From the NCBI GenBank assembly GCA_044222065.1, contig JBGAOA010000028.1:1-52476 (forward strand): 52,476 nucleotides of DNA, written 5' to 3'. Source of the stretch: Candidatus Eiseniibacteriota bacterium. Its GTDB lineage: Bacteria > Eisenbacteria > RBG-16-71-46. Each line of letters begins with the position of its first letter. Positions within the stretch are counted from its first letter, which is position 1. Shown one piece after another: positions 3 through 52,476 of the stretch. The position numbers and the translations under genes were made by a program. The notes under the pieces were generated by a model. The model was not told where the DNA came from, did no database searches, and was given only the letters and a program-made list of their open reading frames with translations.

Positions 3-1238
3 CTCGCGCCGCTGTTCGCGGGCGATCCGCCCGCGAACGGCGCCCACGCGCCCGACGTGGACGAGCAGGCGCTCGTGCTCGCGCGGCTCCGCTACCTGAC
101 CGCGCACGAGGTCGGGCACGCGCTCGGGCTCGAGCACAACTGGGCGGCGACGACGTTCGGCTGGGGCTCGGTGATGGACTACCTCGGACCGCATCTCGAA
201 CGCTCGGGCGAAGCACTCGACCTGTCGGACGCCTACCCGACCGACGTCGGCGCGTACGACCGGCTCGCGATCCGCTGGGGCTACGACGCCGCGCTCGATG
301 CGCGCGCGCGCGAAGCGCTCGTGCGCGACGGGCTCGCGCGCGGCGTGCTGCTGCCGCTCGAGAGCGACGCGCGCTGGGCGGAATACGACTGGGGCGACGA
401 TCCCGCGGCGTGGCTCACTCGCTCGCTCGGCGTGCGCGAGCGGCTGCTCGCGCGCTTTGGCGCCGCTCAGCTCGCGGACGGCGAGCCGTACGCGGCGCTG
501 AACGAGCGCTTCAACCTCGCCTACCTCTACCACCGCTTCGCCGCGCAGGCCGCGCAGCAGGCGGTCGGCGGCCAGTACCAGGCGAACGCCGCGAAGGGCG
601 ACGGCCAGACGCCGTGGTCGTGGGTGCCGCGCGCGCGCCAGCAGCAGTGCCTCGAGGCGCTCGTCGCGGCGCTCGAGCCCGCATCACTCGCGATTCCCGA
701 CGCGATCCAGCGCGCGCTCGTTCCCGGCGCGACCGGCTTCCCGCGCTCGCGCGAGCAGTTCGCGTCCGAAGCGGGCGACGCGTTCGACGCGCGCGCCGCG
801 GCGCGCGTGCTCGCGGGGCTCGTCGTGAATCCGCTGCTCTCGCCCGAGCGCGCCTCGCGCCTCGCGATGGCACCCGCGAACGAATCGCTCACGCTCGCCG
901 ACGTCGTCGCGCGGCTCGTGCGCGCGGCCGCGATCGGCCGAGCGCCGTCGCCGGGCGAGGCGGGCGCGCTCGAGCGCGTACGGCGGCGTGCGATCGTCGA
1001 GGCGCTGATCGGGCTCGCGGCGAGCGACGCGTCGCCCGCGGCGCGCGCGCAGGCGTTCGCCGGGCTCGAGTCGCTCGCGAAGCCGCTCGGAGCCGCCGCG
1101 CGCGCAGGCGGCGACGCCGGCGCCGAGGACCGGCTGCTCGCGCGCGACGTGGACGCGTTCCTGCGCGCTCCGGCAGAGTGGCGCGCGAAGCCGTCCCCGC
1201 CGGTGCCGCCGGGACGGCCGATCGGAGGAACGCGATGA
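3..1238 (+). CDS. Zinc-dependent metalloprotease (metzincin, EcxA/DUF4953-like), 5'-truncated by the window edge
   Basis: HEVGHALGLEH zinc motif followed by Met-turn SVMDY. The frame is open from position 3. The stop overlaps the next start (ATGA, 1235-1238). Confidence 0.85.
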   Translation, partial: LAPLFAGDPPANGAHAPDVDEQALVLARLRYLTAHEVGHALGLEHNWAATTFGWGSVMDYLGPHLERSGEALDLSDAYPTDVGAYDRLAIRWGYDAALDARAREALVRDGLARGVLLPLESDARWAEYDWGDDPAAWLTRSLGVRERLLARFGAAQLADGEPYAALNERFNLAYLYHRFAAQAAQQAVGGQYQANAAKGDGQTPWSWVPRARQQQCLEALVAALEPASLAIPDAIQRALVPGATGFPRSREQFASEAGDAFDARAAARVLAGLVVNPLLSPERASRLAMAPANESLTLADVVARLVRAAAIGRAPSPGEAGALERVRRRAIVEALIGLAASDASPAARAQAFAGLESLAKPLGAAARAGGDAGAEDRLLARDVDAFLRAPAEWRAKPSPPVPPGRPIGGTR

Positions 1239-1816
1239 GTCCGAAGGAGCGCACGCGCTGTGGCTGGGCGCGCACGGAGCTTTCCATTCCCTACCACGAC
1301 GAGGAGTGGGGCGTGCCCGTGCACGACGACCGGCGGCTGTTCGAGTTCATCGTGCTCGAAGGCGCGCAGGCCGGACTGTCGTGGGAGACGATCCTGAAGA
1401 AGCGCGACGCGTACCGCCGCGCGTTCGACCGCTTCGATCCCGCGAAGGTCGCGCGCTACGGCGCCGCGAAGAAGCGCGCGCTCATGGCGGACGCCGGCAT
1501 CGTGCGCAACCGGCTCAAGATCGACTCCGCGATCTCGAACGCGCGCGCGTTCCTCGCCGTGCAGAAGGCCTTCGGCGACTTCGACGCCTACCTGTGGGAC
1601 TTCGTGGACGGCACGCCGGTCGTGAACCGCTGGAAGACGATGAAGCAGATCCCGCCGAAGACGCCGCTCTCGGACACGATCAGCAAGGACCTGAAGCAGC
1701 GCGGCTTCAACTTCGTCGGCTCGACGATCGTGTACGCGTTCCTGCAGGCGACGGGCGTCGTGAACGACCACTTGGTCGGGTGCTTCCGGCACGCGAGCGT
1801 GGGGAAGGGGCGCTAA
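1235..1816 (+). CDS. tag: DNA-3-methyladenine glycosylase I
   Basis: RCGW...YHDEEWGVP, LEGAQAGLSW, IVRNRLKI and GVVNDHLVGC motifs. RBS GGAGG upstream of ATG 1235. 193 aa. Confidence 0.95.
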   Translation: MSPKERTRCGWARTELSIPYHDEEWGVPVHDDRRLFEFIVLEGAQAGLSWETILKKRDAYRRAFDRFDPAKVARYGAAKKRALMADAGIVRNRLKIDSAISNARAFLAVQKAFGDFDAYLWDFVDGTPVVNRWKTMKQIPPKTPLSDTISKDLKQRGFNFVGSTIVYAFLQATGVVNDHLVGCFRHASVGKGR

Positions 1817-3261
1817 CCGCTCGCCTTCGCGTCGCCCGCTCCGCGGTACATCGCGAGCGCGGCCTCGCGCTGAACGGCGTGGTCCACGAGGCGCTCGGGG
1901 TAGGTCTCCCCGAGCGTCACGCCCGCGGCCGCGCGCTCGATCGGTGACGCTTCCCACGGCGCGTGGATCCAGCCGGGGTGCGCGTTCGCGAGTTCGGGCA
2001 CCCAGCGCTTCACGTACGCGCCCTCGGGGTCGAACTTCCAGCCCTGCAGCACGGGATTGAAGATGCGGAACCACGGCTGCGCGTCGGTGCCGGTGCCCGC
2101 GGCCCACTGCCAGCCGCCGTTGTTGCTCGCGAGATCGCCGTCCACGAGGTGCCGCATGAAGTGGCGCTCGCCGAGCTTCCAGTCGAGCAGCAGGTCCTTC
2201 GTCAGGAACGACGCGACGATCATGCGCGCGCGGTTGTGCACGAACCCGGTCGCGACGAGTTCGCGCATCGCGGCGTCCACGATCGGGTAGCCCGTCCGCC
2301 CTTCGCGCCACGCGGCGAAGTGCGCCTCGGCGCCGCGCCAGCGCAGCGCATCGAAGTTGCGGCGGAACGCGCCGCGCTCGGCGTGCGGGAAGTGGAACAT
2401 CACGTGCGCGTAGAAGTCGCGCCACCTCAACTCCGACACGTACTTCGCGGCCGGCTTCTCGAGCGCGGGCGTCGCGCGCGCCGCTTCGCGCACGGCGTGC
2501 GCCGCGGTGCGCGCCGAGAGCGTGCCGAACTTGAGATCGGCCGAGAGCCGCGAGACCGCGGGCACGGCGGGAAAGTCGCGCTCGGCCGCGTAGCGCGGCA
2601 GGCCGTGCGCGACGAAGTGGCCGAGCCGCTGCTTCGCGGCGCGCTCGCCGCCGGGCCAGCGTTCGCTCGCGGGCTCGGCGAATCCGAGCCGCGCGAGCGA
2701 GCCGAGCGGCCGCTCGGGCAGCGCGTGCGCGGCGAAGCGCGTCACGGCCGGCAGCGGCGGCGCGAACGGTAGCGCGTCGCACGCGCGCGCGAACGGCGTG
2801 AACACCGTGTAGGGCGCGCCGGCCGCCGTGTGCACCGCTCCCGGCGGCACGAGCAGCCGGTCGTGAAAGCGCTTCACGCGCACGCCGGCGGCCGCGAGCG
2901 CGCGCTCGACGGCATCGTCGCGCGCGATCAAGGCGGGCTCGTACTCGTCGTTCCAGTACACGGCGTCGGCGCTCGCCGCGCGCGCCGCGCGCAGCACGGT
3001 CTCGGCGGCGTCGCCGTGGTCGAGCGCGAGGCGCGAGCCGTGACGCGCGATCGTCGCCGCGAGTTCGGCGAGCGATTCGAGCACGAACCGCACGCGCGTC
3101 GGGGCGATGTCGTCGCGTCCGAGGATCGCGGGCTCGCTCGCGCAGAACGGCACGACGTTGCCCGCCGCGTCACGCGCGGCTTCGCTCAGGGCGGTGTTGT
3201 CGTCGAGCCGGAGGTCCTTGCGGAACCAGTGGAGGATGCGCACGGCGGGGGAAGATGCCAT
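1813..3261 (-). CDS. phr: Deoxyribodipyrimidine (CPD) photolyase, class I-like
   Basis: WFRKDLRLDDN, SRLSADLKFG, ELRWRDFY, GYPIVDAAMREL, HNRARMIVASFL, NNGGWQW and RIFNP motifs. Start trimmed to MASSPAV at 3261. Confidence 0.93.
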   Translation of the reverse strand: MASSPAVRILHWFRKDLRLDDNTALSEAARDAAGNVVPFCASEPAILGRDDIAPTRVRFVLESLAELAATIARHGSRLALDHGDAAETVLRAARAASADAVYWNDEYEPALIARDDAVERALAAAGVRVKRFHDRLLVPPGAVHTAAGAPYTVFTPFARACDALPFAPPLPAVTRFAAHALPERPLGSLARLGFAEPASERWPGGERAAKQRLGHFVAHGLPRYAAERDFPAVPAVSRLSADLKFGTLSARTAAHAVREAARATPALEKPAAKYVSELRWRDFYAHVMFHFPHAERGAFRRNFDALRWRGAEAHFAAWREGRTGYPIVDAAMRELVATGFVHNRARMIVASFLTKDLLLDWKLGERHFMRHLVDGDLASNNGGWQWAAGTGTDAQPWFRIFNPVLQGWKFDPEGAYVKRWVPELANAHPGWIHAPWEASPIERAAAGVTLGETYPERLVDHAVQREAALAMYRGAGDAKASG

Positions 3262-3392
3262 GCGCCCGCGTGGCTCGCACGCGAGGGCGAAGCCCCATCC
3301 GCTTCGACCGCTTCCTGCGCTCGCACCGCGCGGTCTCGGGCACGCGCCGCGCCGCCCTCGCACCGCGTGACCTCGCGCACGCGCCGTGCCGC

Positions 3393-3523
3393 GCCCGTCC
3401 TGTCCTTCCTCGGGCACGCTCGTCCGCGGCTTCCTGCCGCGGCCGAGCTCGTGTCGGGTCCGCCGCTCCGCCAGTCCCTGGCTCCGCGACGGCCCCGGCT
3501 GCCCTCCGAAGGACAGGACGGGC
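3393..3523. repeat. Structured repeat element, copy 1: 97-bp core (3410-3506) inside a perfect 16-bp inverted repeat
   Basis: Arms GCCCGTCCTGTCCTTC (3393-3408) and GAAGGACAGGACGGGC (3508-3523). The core matches 6364-6460 at 94 of 97 positions by eye. Confidence 0.9.
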
Positions 3524-3609
3524 AGGGCAGAGCGCGGTGGTCTTCTCGCGGACCGCAATGGGCGAACGGTTGCCGTGTGGTCGGGCTCGCGAGCCCGGAG
3601 CCGTGGCGC

Positions 3610-4083
3610 CTACGCCCGCACGATGCGGCAGTTGAAGCAGCCGGGCCGCGCGTTGTGCACGTGCAGCTCGCGCACCGCCTCGTCCGCGAACGCGCGCTCG
3701 ATCGCCGCTTCGAGCGCCGCGCCCTCGACGACCTCGGCGCCCGCGAGGTCGCCTGCGGCGTCGTACGCGCGCAACGACAGCAGCCGGTGGCGCAGCATGC
3801 GCGGAAGCTCGCCCGGTGCGAGCACCGCGCTCGCCACGCCGCGCCGCACGTAGATCGGGCCCGACGCGCGGTACGGCGACGCGACGTCGTGGTGCGCGAA
3901 CGGCAGCAGCAGCAGCTCGTCGCCCACGGCCGCGTCCTCGAGGCTCACGCGGCACGGATAGCCCGGCGTCTCGTCCGCCACGACGCGGCGCGCACCGCGC
4001 GCGGCGAGGTCTTCGTCCGAGAGCGCGAACCACGGCGCGAAGCGCCCGGCCTCGAGCGCGACGACGCGGAACCCCGCGCTCAT
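3610..4083 (-). CDS. DUF1203 family protein
   Basis: GYPCRVSL, PY..SGPIYV, LSLRAYD and LHVHNARPGCFNC motifs. The start overlaps the ogt stop (4080-4083). Confidence 0.85.
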   Translation of the reverse strand: MSAGFRVVALEAGRFAPWFALSDEDLAARGARRVVADETPGYPCRVSLEDAAVGDELLLLPFAHHDVASPYRASGPIYVRRGVASAVLAPGELPRMLRHRLLSLRAYDAAGDLAGAEVVEGAALEAAIERAFADEAVRELHVHNARPGCFNCRIVRA

Positions 4084-4643
4084 CGCGCCGCTCCCGCGGC
4101 TTCGAGCGCGAGCGTCGCGCCGGAGAATCCCGGCGCGCCTTCGTGCGCGAGCAGCCAGCGCTTCTTGTCGAGCCCGCCGCCGTAACCGCCGAGCGTTCCC
4201 GCGCTCGTCACGACGCGGTGGCACGGCAGCACGAGCGCGATCGAGTTCGTGCCGTTCGCGTGCCCGACCGCGCGCGAAGCGCCGGGGCTTCCGACCGCGC
4301 GCGCGAGGTCGGCGTACGAGCGCGTCGCGCCGGCCGGGATGCGAACGAGCGCGCGCCACGTCCGGAGCTGGAACGGCGTGCCGACGGGCGCGACGGGAAT
4401 GCGCCCGAGCGCCGCGAGGTCGCCGGCGAAGTACGCCGCGAGCGCGGACGCCGTCGTGCGCAGCACGTCGTCGTTCGCGCCGTCGTCGAACGCGGCGCCG
4501 GGCGCGTGAGCGACGAGGCGCGCGCGCGCGCGGCCGACGCGTTCCGGACGGTCCTGGAATTCGAGTCCGACGAGTGAATCGCCGTTCGAGATCGCGAGCA
4601 TCGGCGCGAGCGGCGTCTCGAGGATCCGGGTGAGGTAGATCAT
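4080..4643 (-). CDS. ogt: Methylated-DNA--protein-cysteine S-methyltransferase
   Basis: GTPFQ..W..L..IP.G, SRAVG.ANG.N, the PCHRV active site and GGYGGG..KK..LL.HE. Confidence 0.95.
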   Translation of the reverse strand: MIYLTRILETPLAPMLAISNGDSLVGLEFQDRPERVGRARARLVAHAPGAAFDDGANDDVLRTTASALAAYFAGDLAALGRIPVAPVGTPFQLRTWRALVRIPAGATRSYADLARAVGSPGASRAVGHANGTNSIALVLPCHRVVTSAGTLGGYGGGLDKKRWLLAHEGAPGFSGATLALEAAGAAR

Positions 4644-6121
4644 CGCGAGTCCTTTCGTGAGGGTTTCGATGCGGGCCTGGACCACAGGGCGATCACGGCG
4701 TACGCGCGCCACGGACGCCACGCCTCGGCGCGAGCGGCCGCCTCGCGGCGCTCGCGCGGCGACGCGCCGAGCCCGAGCGCGTGCTGCACGCCGAGGTCTC
4801 CGATCGGGAACGCGTCGGGCTCGCCGAGCGCGCGCATCGCGACGTACTGCGCGGTCCACTCGCCGATGCCCGGCAATTCGACGAGTTTCGCGACCGCGTC
4901 GTCGAGTCCGCCGAGTGCCGCGAAGTCGAGCGCGCCGCTCGCGACCGCCTCGGCGAGCGCGCGGATCGAGCGCTGTCGCGCGCCGACGATGCCGAGCGCC
5001 GAGAGGTCGGCGCGCACGAGCGCCTTCGCGTCCGGGAACGCGTGCGTGATCGGGCCGAGCGCCGCGCGCCCGAGCGGCGCGCCGTGCGCCGCGACGATGC
5101 GGCCCGCGAGCGTCGCGGCCGCTTTCACCGTGATCTGCTGGCCGAGGATCGCGCGCACCGCGAGTTCGAACGGGTCGAACGCGCCCGGCACGCGCAGGTC
5201 GCGGCGCCGGACGAGCGCGCGCCGCAGCGGCGCGTCGCGCCGCAACGTCGCGAGGATCGGCGCGGGGTCGGTCGCGACGTCGAACACGCGCGCGATGCGC
5301 GCGACGAGCGACTGAAGCGCAGGGCCCGCATCGCCGCGCACGCGCACGGCGAGCGCGGGCTCACCTCGGAGCGCGCGCACTTCGATCACGCCGCGCGCCG
5401 CGCCGATCGCGAACGCGCGGGCGTACGCGTCGGCGCCGGCCGCTTCGACGCCGGGGATCGCGCGCGCGGCGAGGAACGCGAACAGCGGCGCCGGCTCGAA
5501 CGGTGCACGCGCCGGCAGGCGCAACTCCAGCGCCGGTTCCGCCGCGCGGCGCGGCGCGCCCGCGGCGTCCTTGCGCAATTCGCGGGGCGCGCGCCGGAAC
5601 GTGCCGCGCATGACGTGGTTGAAGCGCCGCACGCTCGCGAAGCCCGACGCGTGCGCGACCTCGGTGATCGGCAGCGCGGTCTCGCCGAGCAGGCGCCGCG
5701 CGAAGTGCAGCCGCCGCGTCTGCGCGACGCCGACGGGCGTCGCGCCGACCTGTTCGACGAACAGCCGGCGCAGCCAGCGCGACGTGATGCCGAGGCGGTC
5801 GGCGAGGTCGTCCACGCTGCCCGTGTCGAGCGCGCCGTCCTCGATGAGCCGCAGCGCGCGCGTGACGGTGACGGACGTGCCGCGCCACGGTGCGCTGCCC
5901 GGCGCGGTCTCGGGATGGCAGCGCATGCACGGGCGGAAGCCTGCTTCCTCGGCGGCGGCGGCGCACGCGAAGAAGCTCAGGTTGTGCTTGCGCGGCATCG
6001 GCGCCGGGCACCCGGGGCGGCAATAGACCTTCGTGCTGCGCACACCGGTGAAGAAGCGTCCGTCGAAGCGCCGGTCCCGGGCGGAGAACGCGCGCCAGCA
6101 GGTTTCGAAGTCGAGTTCCAT
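4640..6121 (-). CDS. alkA: AdaA-AlkA fusion (Ada Zn-binding domain + AraC HTH + DNA-3-methyladenine glycosylase II)
   Basis: YCRPGC...GFRPCMRC Ada Cys4 site, AraC HTH (SGFASVRRFN), FELAVRAILGQQI, LPGIGEWTA helix-hairpin-helix and WRPWRAYA. True start MELDF at 6121. Confidence 0.92.
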   Translation of the reverse strand: MELDFETCWRAFSARDRRFDGRFFTGVRSTKVYCRPGCPAPMPRKHNLSFFACAAAAEEAGFRPCMRCHPETAPGSAPWRGTSVTVTRALRLIEDGALDTGSVDDLADRLGITSRWLRRLFVEQVGATPVGVAQTRRLHFARRLLGETALPITEVAHASGFASVRRFNHVMRGTFRRAPRELRKDAAGAPRRAAEPALELRLPARAPFEPAPLFAFLAARAIPGVEAAGADAYARAFAIGAARGVIEVRALRGEPALAVRVRGDAGPALQSLVARIARVFDVATDPAPILATLRRDAPLRRALVRRRDLRVPGAFDPFELAVRAILGQQITVKAAATLAGRIVAAHGAPLGRAALGPITHAFPDAKALVRADLSALGIVGARQRSIRALAEAVASGALDFAALGGLDDAVAKLVELPGIGEWTAQYVAMRALGEPDAFPIGDLGVQHALGLGASPRERREAAARAEAWRPWRAYAVIALWSRPASKPSRKDSR

Positions 6122-6128
6122 GCGGCGC

Positions 6129-6134
6129 ACGATA
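6129..6134 (-). promoter_or_regulatory. Putative -10 box (TATCGT) 7 nt upstream of the alkA ATG, consistent with a leaderless transcript
   Basis: The minus strand reads GGGG-TATCGT-GCGCCGC-ATG, with no Shine-Dalgarno sequence adjacent. Confidence 0.5.
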
Positions 6135-6280
6135 CCCCGAGCTCGCTCCTCGCACTGGCCGTTTTCGGAAGTGGAGTTGAAACCCCTCAAGGACGAATCC
6201 GCCGAGCCACGCGAAGCGCGAACGTGGCGCTCCTCGAAGCGCAATCGCCGAGCCGCGCGGACCGTCCCGTCGAAGACGCC

Positions 6281-6352
6281 GTCGCCGTCAACCGCCCCGC
6301 GAATCGCCCCGTCGCAAGAACTGTCGCCCTCAACCGCCCCGCGAACCGTCCC
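6281..6352. repeat. Imperfect direct repeat, 42-bp period
   Basis: GTCGCCGTCAACCGCCCCGCGAATCGCCCC at 6281 and GTCGCCCTCAACCGCCCCGCGAACCGTCCC at 6323. Confidence 0.7.
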
Positions 6353-6488
6353 CAGGTCCCTCATCGGGCACGCTCGTCCGCGGCTTCCTGCCGCGGCCGA
6401 GCTCGGATCGGGTCCGCCGCTCCGCCAGTCCCTGGCTCCGCGACGGCCCCGGCGGCCCTCTGAGGGACCTGGGGACGGTTCGCGGGGC
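6336..6488. repeat. Structured repeat element, copy 2: same 97-bp core (6364-6460) inside a different, perfect 28-bp inverted repeat
   Basis: Arms GCCCCGCGAACCGTCCCCAGGTCCCTCA (6336-6363) and TGAGGGACCTGGGGACGGTTCGCGGGGC (6461-6488). Confidence 0.9.
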
Positions 6489-6540
6489 TCGACGTCGGCG
6501 CTTCGCGGGGCTCGGCAACTGCGCTTCGTGCTTCGCGCGG

Positions 6541-8160
6541 TCAGCGCGCGACGGGCACGCGGGCGAGCACGAGCGTCGGTGAACGCAGCAGGATCTCGAT
6601 CGGGCCCGGCGCCGCCGTCGCGATCGCACGCTCGCGCAATGCGCGAAACGCGACGTACGCGTAGCCGTCCGGCGCCGGATACGCCCACGCCGCGTCCGGA
6701 CTCGCCGTCGTCACGAGGTTGCGCTCGAGCGCGTTGCGGAGCGTCGGCGGCACCGCGTCGAGCACGACGAGCACGGCCGTGCGCGGCGAGCCGCCGTTCA
6801 TCGCGTCCGCGACGATGCCGGCGCTGAAGTAGTCCTGCATCGCCGGCAGCACGCGCAGCGTCGCGATCGGCGCCGTCGCCGCGACCGGCAGCGCGAACAG
6901 CGCGATCGCCGCGCGCGTGCGGCCGAGCCAGTTCGCGAGGAACGGCAGCCAGGCCGTCGCGAACAGCACGACCGCCGCGAGCCGCAACGCCGGCGCCGCG
7001 ACCGCGATCTCGCGCGCGAGCATCGACAGCAGCGCCGCCGCGGACGCGCCCGCGAGCCCGAGCATGAGCGCGGCGCGCGTGAGCGCGGGCGCGAGGCGGC
7101 GCGGGCTCTCGAGCGCGTGGTCGAGCATGCGCCCGCACGCGAGCGCGGCCGCCGCGAACGCGGGCAGGATCGCGGGCATCGGGGCGTGCGGAACGACGAC
7201 GAGCGGCGCGAACGCCGCGACGAGGCACGCGACGAAGAAGTGCGCGGCGTGCTCCTCGCGCGTCTCGCGCGAGCCCGGGACGTGCGCGCCGGACGGCGCG
7301 AGCGCGCGCGGCGCGCGCCACCACGTCGCCGCGTGCGAGAGCGCGGCCGGGAGCAGCGCGCTCCACGGAAGCATGCCCGCGACGAGCAGCGACAGCGCGA
7401 GCAGCGGCGGCGCGTACCACGCGCCGCGCGCGTCGGCGCCGTACGGGAACGCGAGGCACTCGCGCACGAACGCCGCGCCGTAGCGCTCGAGCATCGCTCC
7501 GTACCAGGGCAGCGCGATCGCGACCGCGATCGCGACGCCCGGCAGCGGACGGATGCGCCGGACGAGCGCGCGGTCGCGCAGCAGCGCCGCGTACAGCGCG
7601 ACGGCGCCGACGGGCCAGAGTGCTGCGAGCGGCCCGCACATCACGGCGGCGCCGCCGAGCGCGACCCACGAGACGAGCAGCCGGGCGTCGCGGCCCGGGC
7701 GCGCGGCGAACACGGCGTCCGCGAATCCTGACAGCGCGATCCACGCGGCGAGCGCGCCGAAGAGCTGCGCGGAGTCCGTCCACACGGCGAGCGTCGTCGC
7801 GAGCCCCGACGCGAACACGCCGGCGGCGAGCCAGCCCGCGCGCCCGCCGAAGTGCTCGGCCGCGATCGAGCCGACGACCGCGACGAGCAGCACCGCGAGG
7901 ATCGCGCGGAACGTCCGCACGCGCGCCGCCGTGTGCTCGCCCGTGCCGAGCGCGAGGAACTCGAGCGCGTACGCCGGCGACGGCTTCTCGAAGCGCGGGG
8001 ATCCCGCCCACAGCGGCACGAGCAGCTCGCGCGCCTCGGCCATCTCGCGCGCGACGCCGGCGTCGCGCGCTTCGCGTTCATCGAGCGACGGCACGCCGGC
8101 GAATCCGGCGAACAGCGCCGCGCAGAGCACGAGCACCGCGAGGGCGGGGACGAAGCGCAT
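6541..8160 (-). CDS. ArnT-like / family 39 membrane glycosyltransferase
   Basis: DE......AREM...P...G..RFEKP N-terminal loop motif, many TM segments, ALPWY and LPWS motifs. Confidence 0.75.
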   Translation of the reverse strand: MRFVPALAVLVLCAALFAGFAGVPSLDEREARDAGVAREMAEARELLVPLWAGSPRFEKPSPAYALEFLALGTGEHTAARVRTFRAILAVLLVAVVGSIAAEHFGGRAGWLAAGVFASGLATTLAVWTDSAQLFGALAAWIALSGFADAVFAARPGRDARLLVSWVALGGAAVMCGPLAALWPVGAVALYAALLRDRALVRRIRPLPGVAIAVAIALPWYGAMLERYGAAFVRECLAFPYGADARGAWYAPPLLALSLLVAGMLPWSALLPAALSHAATWWRAPRALAPSGAHVPGSRETREEHAAHFFVACLVAAFAPLVVVPHAPMPAILPAFAAAALACGRMLDHALESPRRLAPALTRAALMLGLAGASAAALLSMLAREIAVAAPALRLAAVVLFATAWLPFLANWLGRTRAAIALFALPVAATAPIATLRVLPAMQDYFSAGIVADAMNGGSPRTAVLVVLDAVPPTLRNALERNLVTTASPDAAWAYPAPDGYAYVAFRALRERAIATAAPGPIEILLRSPTLVLARVPVAR

Positions 8161-52288: not shown

Positions 52289-52441
52289 TACACGCGGAAG
52301 GCGAGGCGGAAGTCCGCGCACACTCGAGGCGCAGCGGAAGGCGAGTCGGAAGTCCCTCTCGGGCGCCACGCGAACTCCCGCGATCAGTTACACGCGGAAG
52401 GCGAGTCGGAAGTCCACGCATTCACGAGGCGCAGCGGAAGG
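52289..52441 (+). repeat. GGAAG-rich direct repeat cluster
   Basis: GCGGAAGGCGAG(G/T)CGGAAGTCC at 52294, 52334 and 52394, partial at 52434. There is a higher-order 100-bp duplication (52289-52341 vs 52389-52441). Confidence 0.8.
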
Positions 52442-52476
52442 GGGGTCGGTTGGCCCCCACCGGCCCCTCGGCCGGG

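Follow-up and report, generated by a model that had tools for sequence, protein, structure and literature searches.

What do two nearly identical folded elements do on either side of a group of alkylation-repair genes? The question is raised by a contig of Candidatus Eiseniibacteriota bacterium (JBGAOA010000028.1, assembly GCA_044222065.1), of which we analysed 52,476 nucleotides (hereafter the window), and in which adaA/alkA, ogt and a DUF1203 gene lie between two copies of a structured core. An earlier note on this DNA had proposed either an undescribed dispersed structured-RNA or REPIN-like family, or recombination sites that could mobilise or delete the repair genes. We find that both elements belong, as neighbouring copies, to a dispersed, gene-less, folded repeat of about 150 bases. 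They are probably sister copies of a repeat of the type known as TwoAYGGAY (Rfam RF01731), which appears to spread as single-stranded folded DNA, the repair genes being bystanders. The supports for this explanation are the existence of the family, its fold, its strand asymmetry, its stem length, its end motif, the likeness of neighbouring copies, and sites found filled, empty or flipped.

Two sister copies and their family

Direct comparison confirmed that the two cores agree at 94 of 97 positions and that each is closed by a perfect inverted repeat, of 16 bp in copy 1 and 28 bp in copy 2 (Table 1). As the earlier note had observed, the arm sequences differ between the copies while their pairing is kept; arm identity is 0.53, which is the level seen between genomes (median 0.50) and is reached by 31% of 904 null arm pairs. 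The basal stem of copy 1 extends, imperfectly, beyond its perfect arms, and therefore the stems of both copies comprise about 35 positions. The two copies are mutual best matches with an identity of 0.96, against at most 0.74 to any other copy, and have a derived junction in common. Only one other long near-identical repeat occurs in the window, an 82-bp pair at its end.

As RNA, the 97-base core folds on both strands into two hairpins on a junction (z -5.1 and -4.7), and none of 200 shuffled cores was as stable. Near-whole elements folded as DNA gave z-scores of -6.6 to -11.4, and the fold of the minus strand was more stable than that of the plus by about 7 kcal/mol. The minus strand presents GGA in both tips (loops AGGGAC and AGGAA), and its hairpin A has a GGA/GGA internal loop; this GGA strand is the one predicted by the folding models to be the folding strand. 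The two hairpins of the original description thus stand, with the refinements that the second tip consists of a 5-bp stem and a 3-base loop and that it is the minus strand that should fold. The result is a Y shape, two GGA-loop hairpins on a basal stem that is fixed in length and free in sequence.

The earlier note had suggested searching the genome and its relatives with the core and building a covariance model, and both steps revealed the dispersed structured family, with its conserved core and variable, paired arms, that it had anticipated. A profile made from 23 seeds located 12 copies in this genome, several of them at contig ends; a covariance model built from 60 sequences (R1) gave nine matches at E <=0.001; at E <=0.06 there were 13, of which one is a tandem fragment. 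R1 matched in 21 of 101 genomes of the class and in 18 of 20 of the family, with 161 matches in total and between 1 and 32 copies per element-bearing class genome. Five genomes of other phyla contained 50, 143, 20, 1 and 5 matches, the 143 belonging to one Planctomycetes genome. A pattern scan of genome contigs found at least 118 stretches, about half of them true copies as judged by eye and profile; the record titles among these stretches were Ca. Eisenbacteria and many Planctomycetota, with single records from Fibrobacteraceae, Bacillota, Competibacteraceae and Lysobacterales. Among plasmids, seven records had short partial matches, none of which covers 80% of the element, and the one pattern match among viral contigs was judged to be due to chance because it had a 6-bp arm and no model match.

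Family alignments were made from 121 and 102 matches, drawing on most but not all of the 161 class matches; 222 were distinct, and in 204 the flanks sufficed for analysing the stem. In 118 distinct copies, most of which were not seed members, 28 of 29 pairs had changed on both sides, and the covariation score was 0.44, compared with 0.13 when shuffled and at most 0.07 when slid, a score to be read knowing that the alignment was fitted to the model and that kinship inflates it.

The copy on contig C110 (L183:1450-1832; C110:24452-24831) sits within nested inverted arms of more than 120 bp, made of repeated end units, which run off the contig. At 52289-52470 the window carries a 100-bp-spaced repeat of arm units from this copy, 91-94% alike, and a further copy or array of the element probably lies beyond the window end.

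A fixed-length stem and signs of movement

Among 156 non-planctomycete copies, 111 have a basal stem of 30-38 bp, and among 48 from Planctomycetes, 46 have one of 24-32 bp. On the GGA strand, G-T pairs outnumber A-C pairs in the stem by 150 to 35 in the former and by 57 to 3 in the latter. An A immediately before the stem and a G immediately after it are found in 58 of the 128 copies with 24-42-bp stems, where 9.5% would be expected and where the mirror form occurs 7 times; among planctomycete copies the same end is seen in 37 of 46. Copy 2 of the window ends in the commonest form of the family, A/GC...GC/G on the GGA strand (slashes marking the stem ends).

The arms differ more between copies than the cores that they enclose. 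When copies of the same genome with cores at least 90% alike were paired (94 pairs from 10 genomes, cores 95% alike), their arms were 74% alike (median), and in one genome the figure for the arms of sister copies was 0.92. Next to the core, arm identity is 0.95, and it declines smoothly to 0.50 at the outermost end, in agreement with the earlier remark that the interior is conserved here, unlike in classical MITEs (miniature inverted-repeat transposable elements), where the termini are. When pairs were free of gaps and their arms 70% alike or more, the arm columns showed 137 double changes that were still paired, 158 one-sided changes and 16 unpaired double changes, counts taken over pairs that are not independent. 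Inversion of the core by arm-arm recombination is not supported, A-C pairs lying no further out than G-T pairs (25 versus 141, p 0.7).

Position and orientation suggest that copies move, and often locally. Close neighbours were more alike than their own genome's median in 19 of 22 pairs, and 16 of 21 close pairs (a raw count) were divergent. Of 134 copies with enough flank, 115 could be classed by a simple codon model, checked on five window genes, leaving 19 ambiguous. The GGA strand had the direction of both neighbouring genes in 28 copies and the opposite direction in 32, while 46 copies lay in convergent spacers and 9 in divergent ones. The GGA strand therefore has no bias towards the transcribed strand (28 versus 32), although in both window copies it is the transcribed strand. 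At 11 hand-picked sites shared between non-planctomycete genomes, orientation was flipped in three; the present genome is empty at one of them, its copy sitting one spacer further on.

Aligned Planctomycetes loci, from which two at contig ends were excluded, provide filled and empty alleles. One site is empty in three and filled in one of four loci (a fifth, short match being left out), another is filled in two, empty in one and unclear in one, and a third is filled in one, reversed in one and gap-broken in one. The arms at these sites are family sequence and are absent from the empty alleles; the genes of empty and filled alleles are 74-88% alike and the filled ones carry other repeats too, which blurs any target-site duplication. 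In these Planctomycetes (L051, L073, L100, L331, L334, L335) the element belongs to composite arrays that also hold two further short palindromic repeats, of which one starts with GTAG and may be REP-like and the other may resemble an IS605-type end.

Explanations for the pair and its repair genes

We suggest that a trans-acting enzyme recognises the GGA-tipped core together with the A/G...C/G stem base, and that it measures a stem of about three helical turns while ignoring its sequence. The stem would drift fast because its sequence is not read, and polymerase template switching from arm to arm, a process described as correcting bacterial inverted repeats (PMC5941160), could keep the drifting stem paired. 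A short hop into the spacer next but one would likely have produced one window copy from the other, and binding of CsrA to GGA-strand transcripts might be a side effect.

Several observations weigh against this explanation. No mobilising enzyme was found: none of the 101 class genomes, which were the scope of this search, has a REP-associated tyrosine transposase (RAYT) above the NF047646 cut-off, and no protein family recurs beside 83 element loci except shared housekeeping flanks. The single Y1 gene of this genome stands behind lexA with no element copy nearby and lacks the tyrosine present in two IS200-like controls; no Y1 gene was found in the genome with 32 copies. The G-T bias does not discriminate DNA from RNA, and the non-independence of the pairs limits the arm-change counts. 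Copy 1 lacks the end motif, and no close empty allele of either window site was found. Eight of the 11 shared sites keep the same orientation between species or genera, which fits long retention and perhaps function, and in 117 of 124 copies GGA is preserved in the two tip loops alike. Finally, csrA is present in all 21 element-bearing class genomes.

A rival explanation is that the element persists chiefly as an RNA module, transcribed, with a stem that is cut or protective and GGA loops that soak up CsrA, mobility being secondary. The tips hold their GGA, whereas the internal GNA loop is variable at its middle base (GGA 71, GTA 16, GCA 8 and GAA 7 of 112 listed), TwoAYGGAY is reported to fit the CsrA motif (PMC4333381), both window copies lie on the transcribed strand, and sites persist across genera; csrA is found in this genome and in four of the five element-bearing genomes of other phyla. 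We nevertheless consider this explanation unlikely, given the want of any sense-strand bias, a copy number ranging from 0 to 143, one genome with five element matches and no csrA match (its completeness is not given), and a search model that itself favours GGA loops. Moreover, csrA occurs in 83 of the 101 class genomes, including 62 of the 80 without an R1 match, so its co-occurrence with the element says little.

We think it improbable that just the core moves and that every insertion creates new arms through inverted copying of target DNA. The window arms are indeed no more alike than those of different genomes, flanking tandem repeats run into the outer arms, and the C110 copy has its long nested arms, all of which such copying might produce; yet the arms of sister copies in one genome are mostly homologous and decay smoothly away from the core, stem length is fixed, an end motif is present, and planctomycete arms are family sequence missing from empty alleles. 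Far less credible still is the idea that the copies serve as recombination sites, or as the ends of a transposon, by which the repair genes are moved or deleted. Direct repeats 94/97 alike could recombine, deleting 2,954 bp, and DUF1203 is lineage-specific at this place. However, among 29 alkA loci of relatives the upstream membrane-protein gene is kept in 10, a photolyase beside ogt in 7 and both in 5, while none of the 29 contains an element copy within 1.5-kb flanks; since flanking genes are kept in relatives without the element, the ancestral gene order predates the copies. Between the members of other pairs lie a HAD hydrolase, a mutase cluster, ruvA/ruvC-like genes (all named from their sequences) or nothing, and no candidate driver gene recurs between paired copies. 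This proposal of the earlier note is already largely refuted, and we infer that the repair genes, for which the finding means little, are bystanders of the element.

The gene labels adaA/alkA, ogt and DUF1203 were verified by Pfam (Table 1), and the gene at 6541-8160 has no Pfam match. The repair cluster spans 1238-6121, where a methyladenine glycosylase gene on the plus strand converges on the photolyase, DUF1203, ogt and adaA/alkA genes on the minus strand. DUF1203 adjoins alkA in only one of the 29 relatives' loci, and there on the other side; it was added to the cluster in this lineage. Both element copies are stop-free and in frame with the downstream gene (minus strand, 1813-3558 and 4640-8011), as is common at such GC content, and the promoter and terminator scan returned 0 promoters and 0 terminators. 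When all contigs of 7 of 24 sequencing runs were compared, one other run had 38 extra bases just outside copy 2 (a joint of 6491 to 6526, with 72 letters between), a length difference that falls where the window holds a tandem repeat; copy-1 letters at 6406-6407 in two runs may reflect an assembly merge of the two cores. Among the alignment rows listed for these runs, none joined copy 1 to copy 2, although contigs are unable to reveal a deletion of that sort; in 3 runs neither copy was spanned by an RNA contig, a result of no weight at such low cover.

Table 1. Positions in the window of the two element copies, their parts, and adjoining genes and repeats.
Feature	Position	Strand	Remarks
Copy 1, whole element, ~155 bases	3381-3535	-	Y on ~35-position basal stem; outer ends approximate; model match 3408-3513, E 7.7e-6
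Copy 1 perfect arm, 16 bp	3393-3408	none	pairs with 3508-3523
Copy 1 second perfect arm	3508-3523	none	pairs with 3393-3408
Copy 1 core	3410-3506	-	inner stem, hairpins A and B
Copy 1 hairpin A	3455-3497	-	GGA tip 3475-3477; GGA/GGA internal loop
Copy 1 hairpin B	3418-3448	-	AGGAA loop
Copy 2, whole element, 153 bases	6336-6488	-	model match 6362-6466, E 7.0e-6
Copy 2 perfect arm, 28 bp	6336-6363	none	pairs with 6461-6488
Copy 2 second perfect arm	6461-6488	none	pairs with 6336-6363
Copy 2 core	6364-6460	-	hairpin A 6409-6451, hairpin B 6372-6402
Tandem repeat, 37 bp x 2.0	3320-3392	none	extends into copy 1 outer stem
Tandem repeat, 42 bp x 2.4	6252-6353	none	overlaps copy 2 outer arm
Tandem repeat, 23 bp x 2.2	6479-6528	none	opposite end of copy 2
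DNA photolyase gene	1813-3261	-	Pfam
DUF1203 gene	3610-4083	-	Pfam
ogt	4080-4643	-	Pfam DNA_binding_1
adaA/alkA	4640-6121	-	Pfam Ada_Zn_binding, HTH_18, AlkA_N, HhH-GPD

Elsewhere the window is ordinary; between 9386 and 52244 it encodes a tricorn protease, an HD protein, ApbE, a band 7 protein, DinB, a TonB receptor, AtuA, BioY, a thiolase and an enoyl-CoA hydratase, and 8 of the 25 open reading frames there have no Pfam match at 1e-8. Another family of repeats in the genome has a G-A-rich core and ends of 21-23 bp that are conserved (C1:6342-6466, C7:5392-5512, C26:18335-18476). The IS200-like Y1 gene (L028:1435-1893, contig C107) is single-copy after lexA in 19 of 20 family genomes (also L300-L318 and L321) and occurs in other families of the order; no element copies were found in 30 Y1 loci. 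Its HUH motif is kept in the family while the tyrosine of the IS200 controls is gone, a pattern suggesting that it is likely a domesticated TnpA, possibly linked to the SOS response.

Relation to TwoAYGGAY, REPINs and MITEs

In its build the element looks like a GC-rich variant of the TwoAYGGAY type, a judgement made on sequence and predicted structure. TwoAYGGAY has been catalogued since 2010 as an RNA without an assigned function (PMC2864571), and in the accessible part of the literature its binding of CsrA/RsmA is put forward as a proposal. Both have two sequential GGA-loop hairpins on a common basal stem, and both have a long, poorly conserved outer stem, described for TwoAYGGAY as 'not well conserved' (PMC4333381); RF01731 loci also carry long variable stems. 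The tandem G-A pairs reported at the base of the second hairpin (PMC4333381) are present here, with the junction AGYGA...GARCG in 98 of 124 family copies, although in the window copies these G-A pairs are replaced by Watson-Crick pairs. The published seed alignment contains the same junction and the same loop variants, including non-strict loops (PMC2864571). A recent preprint (bioRxiv 10.64898/2026.09.22.753630) records 68% divergent doublets, swings in copy number, flanking repeats and a mobile-like expansion for TwoAYGGAY, as we find divergent doublets (16 of 21), a wide range of copy number and neighbouring repeats. The differences are that strict AYGGAY occurs in only 27 and 3 of 124 loops, where GGA is in both in 117, that hairpins here are longer and have GNA/GNA internal loops, that the lineages are new, and that none of the folds inspected showed the additional hairpins and pseudoknot of Pseudomonadota.

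The Rfam model does not recognise these copies: RF01731 (gathering 43 bits) has no match at E <=10 in window 3200-6700, in the genome or in 20 family loci, and Rfam as a whole gave no match at gathering in the window and one chance match in 3200-6700. Conversely, R1 overlapped the RF01731 match on the same strand in 27 of 29 loci (29 of 30 being searched), always weakly (best 19.9 bits, E 0.026). We found no published description from Eisenbacteria or Planctomycetes in the literature outside subscription journals and preprint supplements, and figures S25-S29 of the preprint may add lineages. The term 'undescribed' in the earlier note therefore holds insofar as the RF01731 model misses these copies; the architecture with its variable outer stem had already been described.

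In its accessible part, the preprint leaves undecided whether TwoAYGGAY is a CsrA sponge or a mobile element, and it is here that the Eisenbacteria branch is informative, through its empty, filled and flipped sites, its local hops, its lack of preference for the transcribed strand and its length-fixed, sequence-free stem. We tentatively raise the wider possibility, which we hold with less than even confidence, that TwoAYGGAY-type repeats are single-stranded mobile DNA in many phyla, moved by a non-RAYT enzyme that recognises two GGA tips and gauges a sequence-free stem, about 33 bp long and with an A-G pair at its end, and that this would be clearest in the Eisenbacteria branch with its hypervariable stems. 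What most deserves further work is that stem, along with the motif at its end, and the enzyme still to be found; the branch provides exact substrates both for a test of CsrA binding and for a search for the mover.

The structure and behaviour of the repeat also have partial analogues among REPINs and MITEs. With classical MITEs, whose terminal inverted repeats derive from insertion sequences, it has in common a length of about 150 bases, inverted ends, dispersal and the absence of a gene, whereas its termini are the least conserved part. The label 'REPIN-like' captures the behaviour and not the anatomy. The REPIN/RAYT system likewise consists of gene-less hairpin elements in tandem arrays, with stems that are paired yet variable (PMC3337134) and, in repeats of P. 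fluorescens, a preference for convergent spacers (PMC2718517); here, however, it is the tip that is conserved rather than two inverted REP palindromes at the ends, which are the most variable part, and no RAYT above the cut-off was found in the 101 class genomes. A repeat that behaves in the manner of a REPIN and is built in the manner of TwoAYGGAY is thus a formal member of neither.

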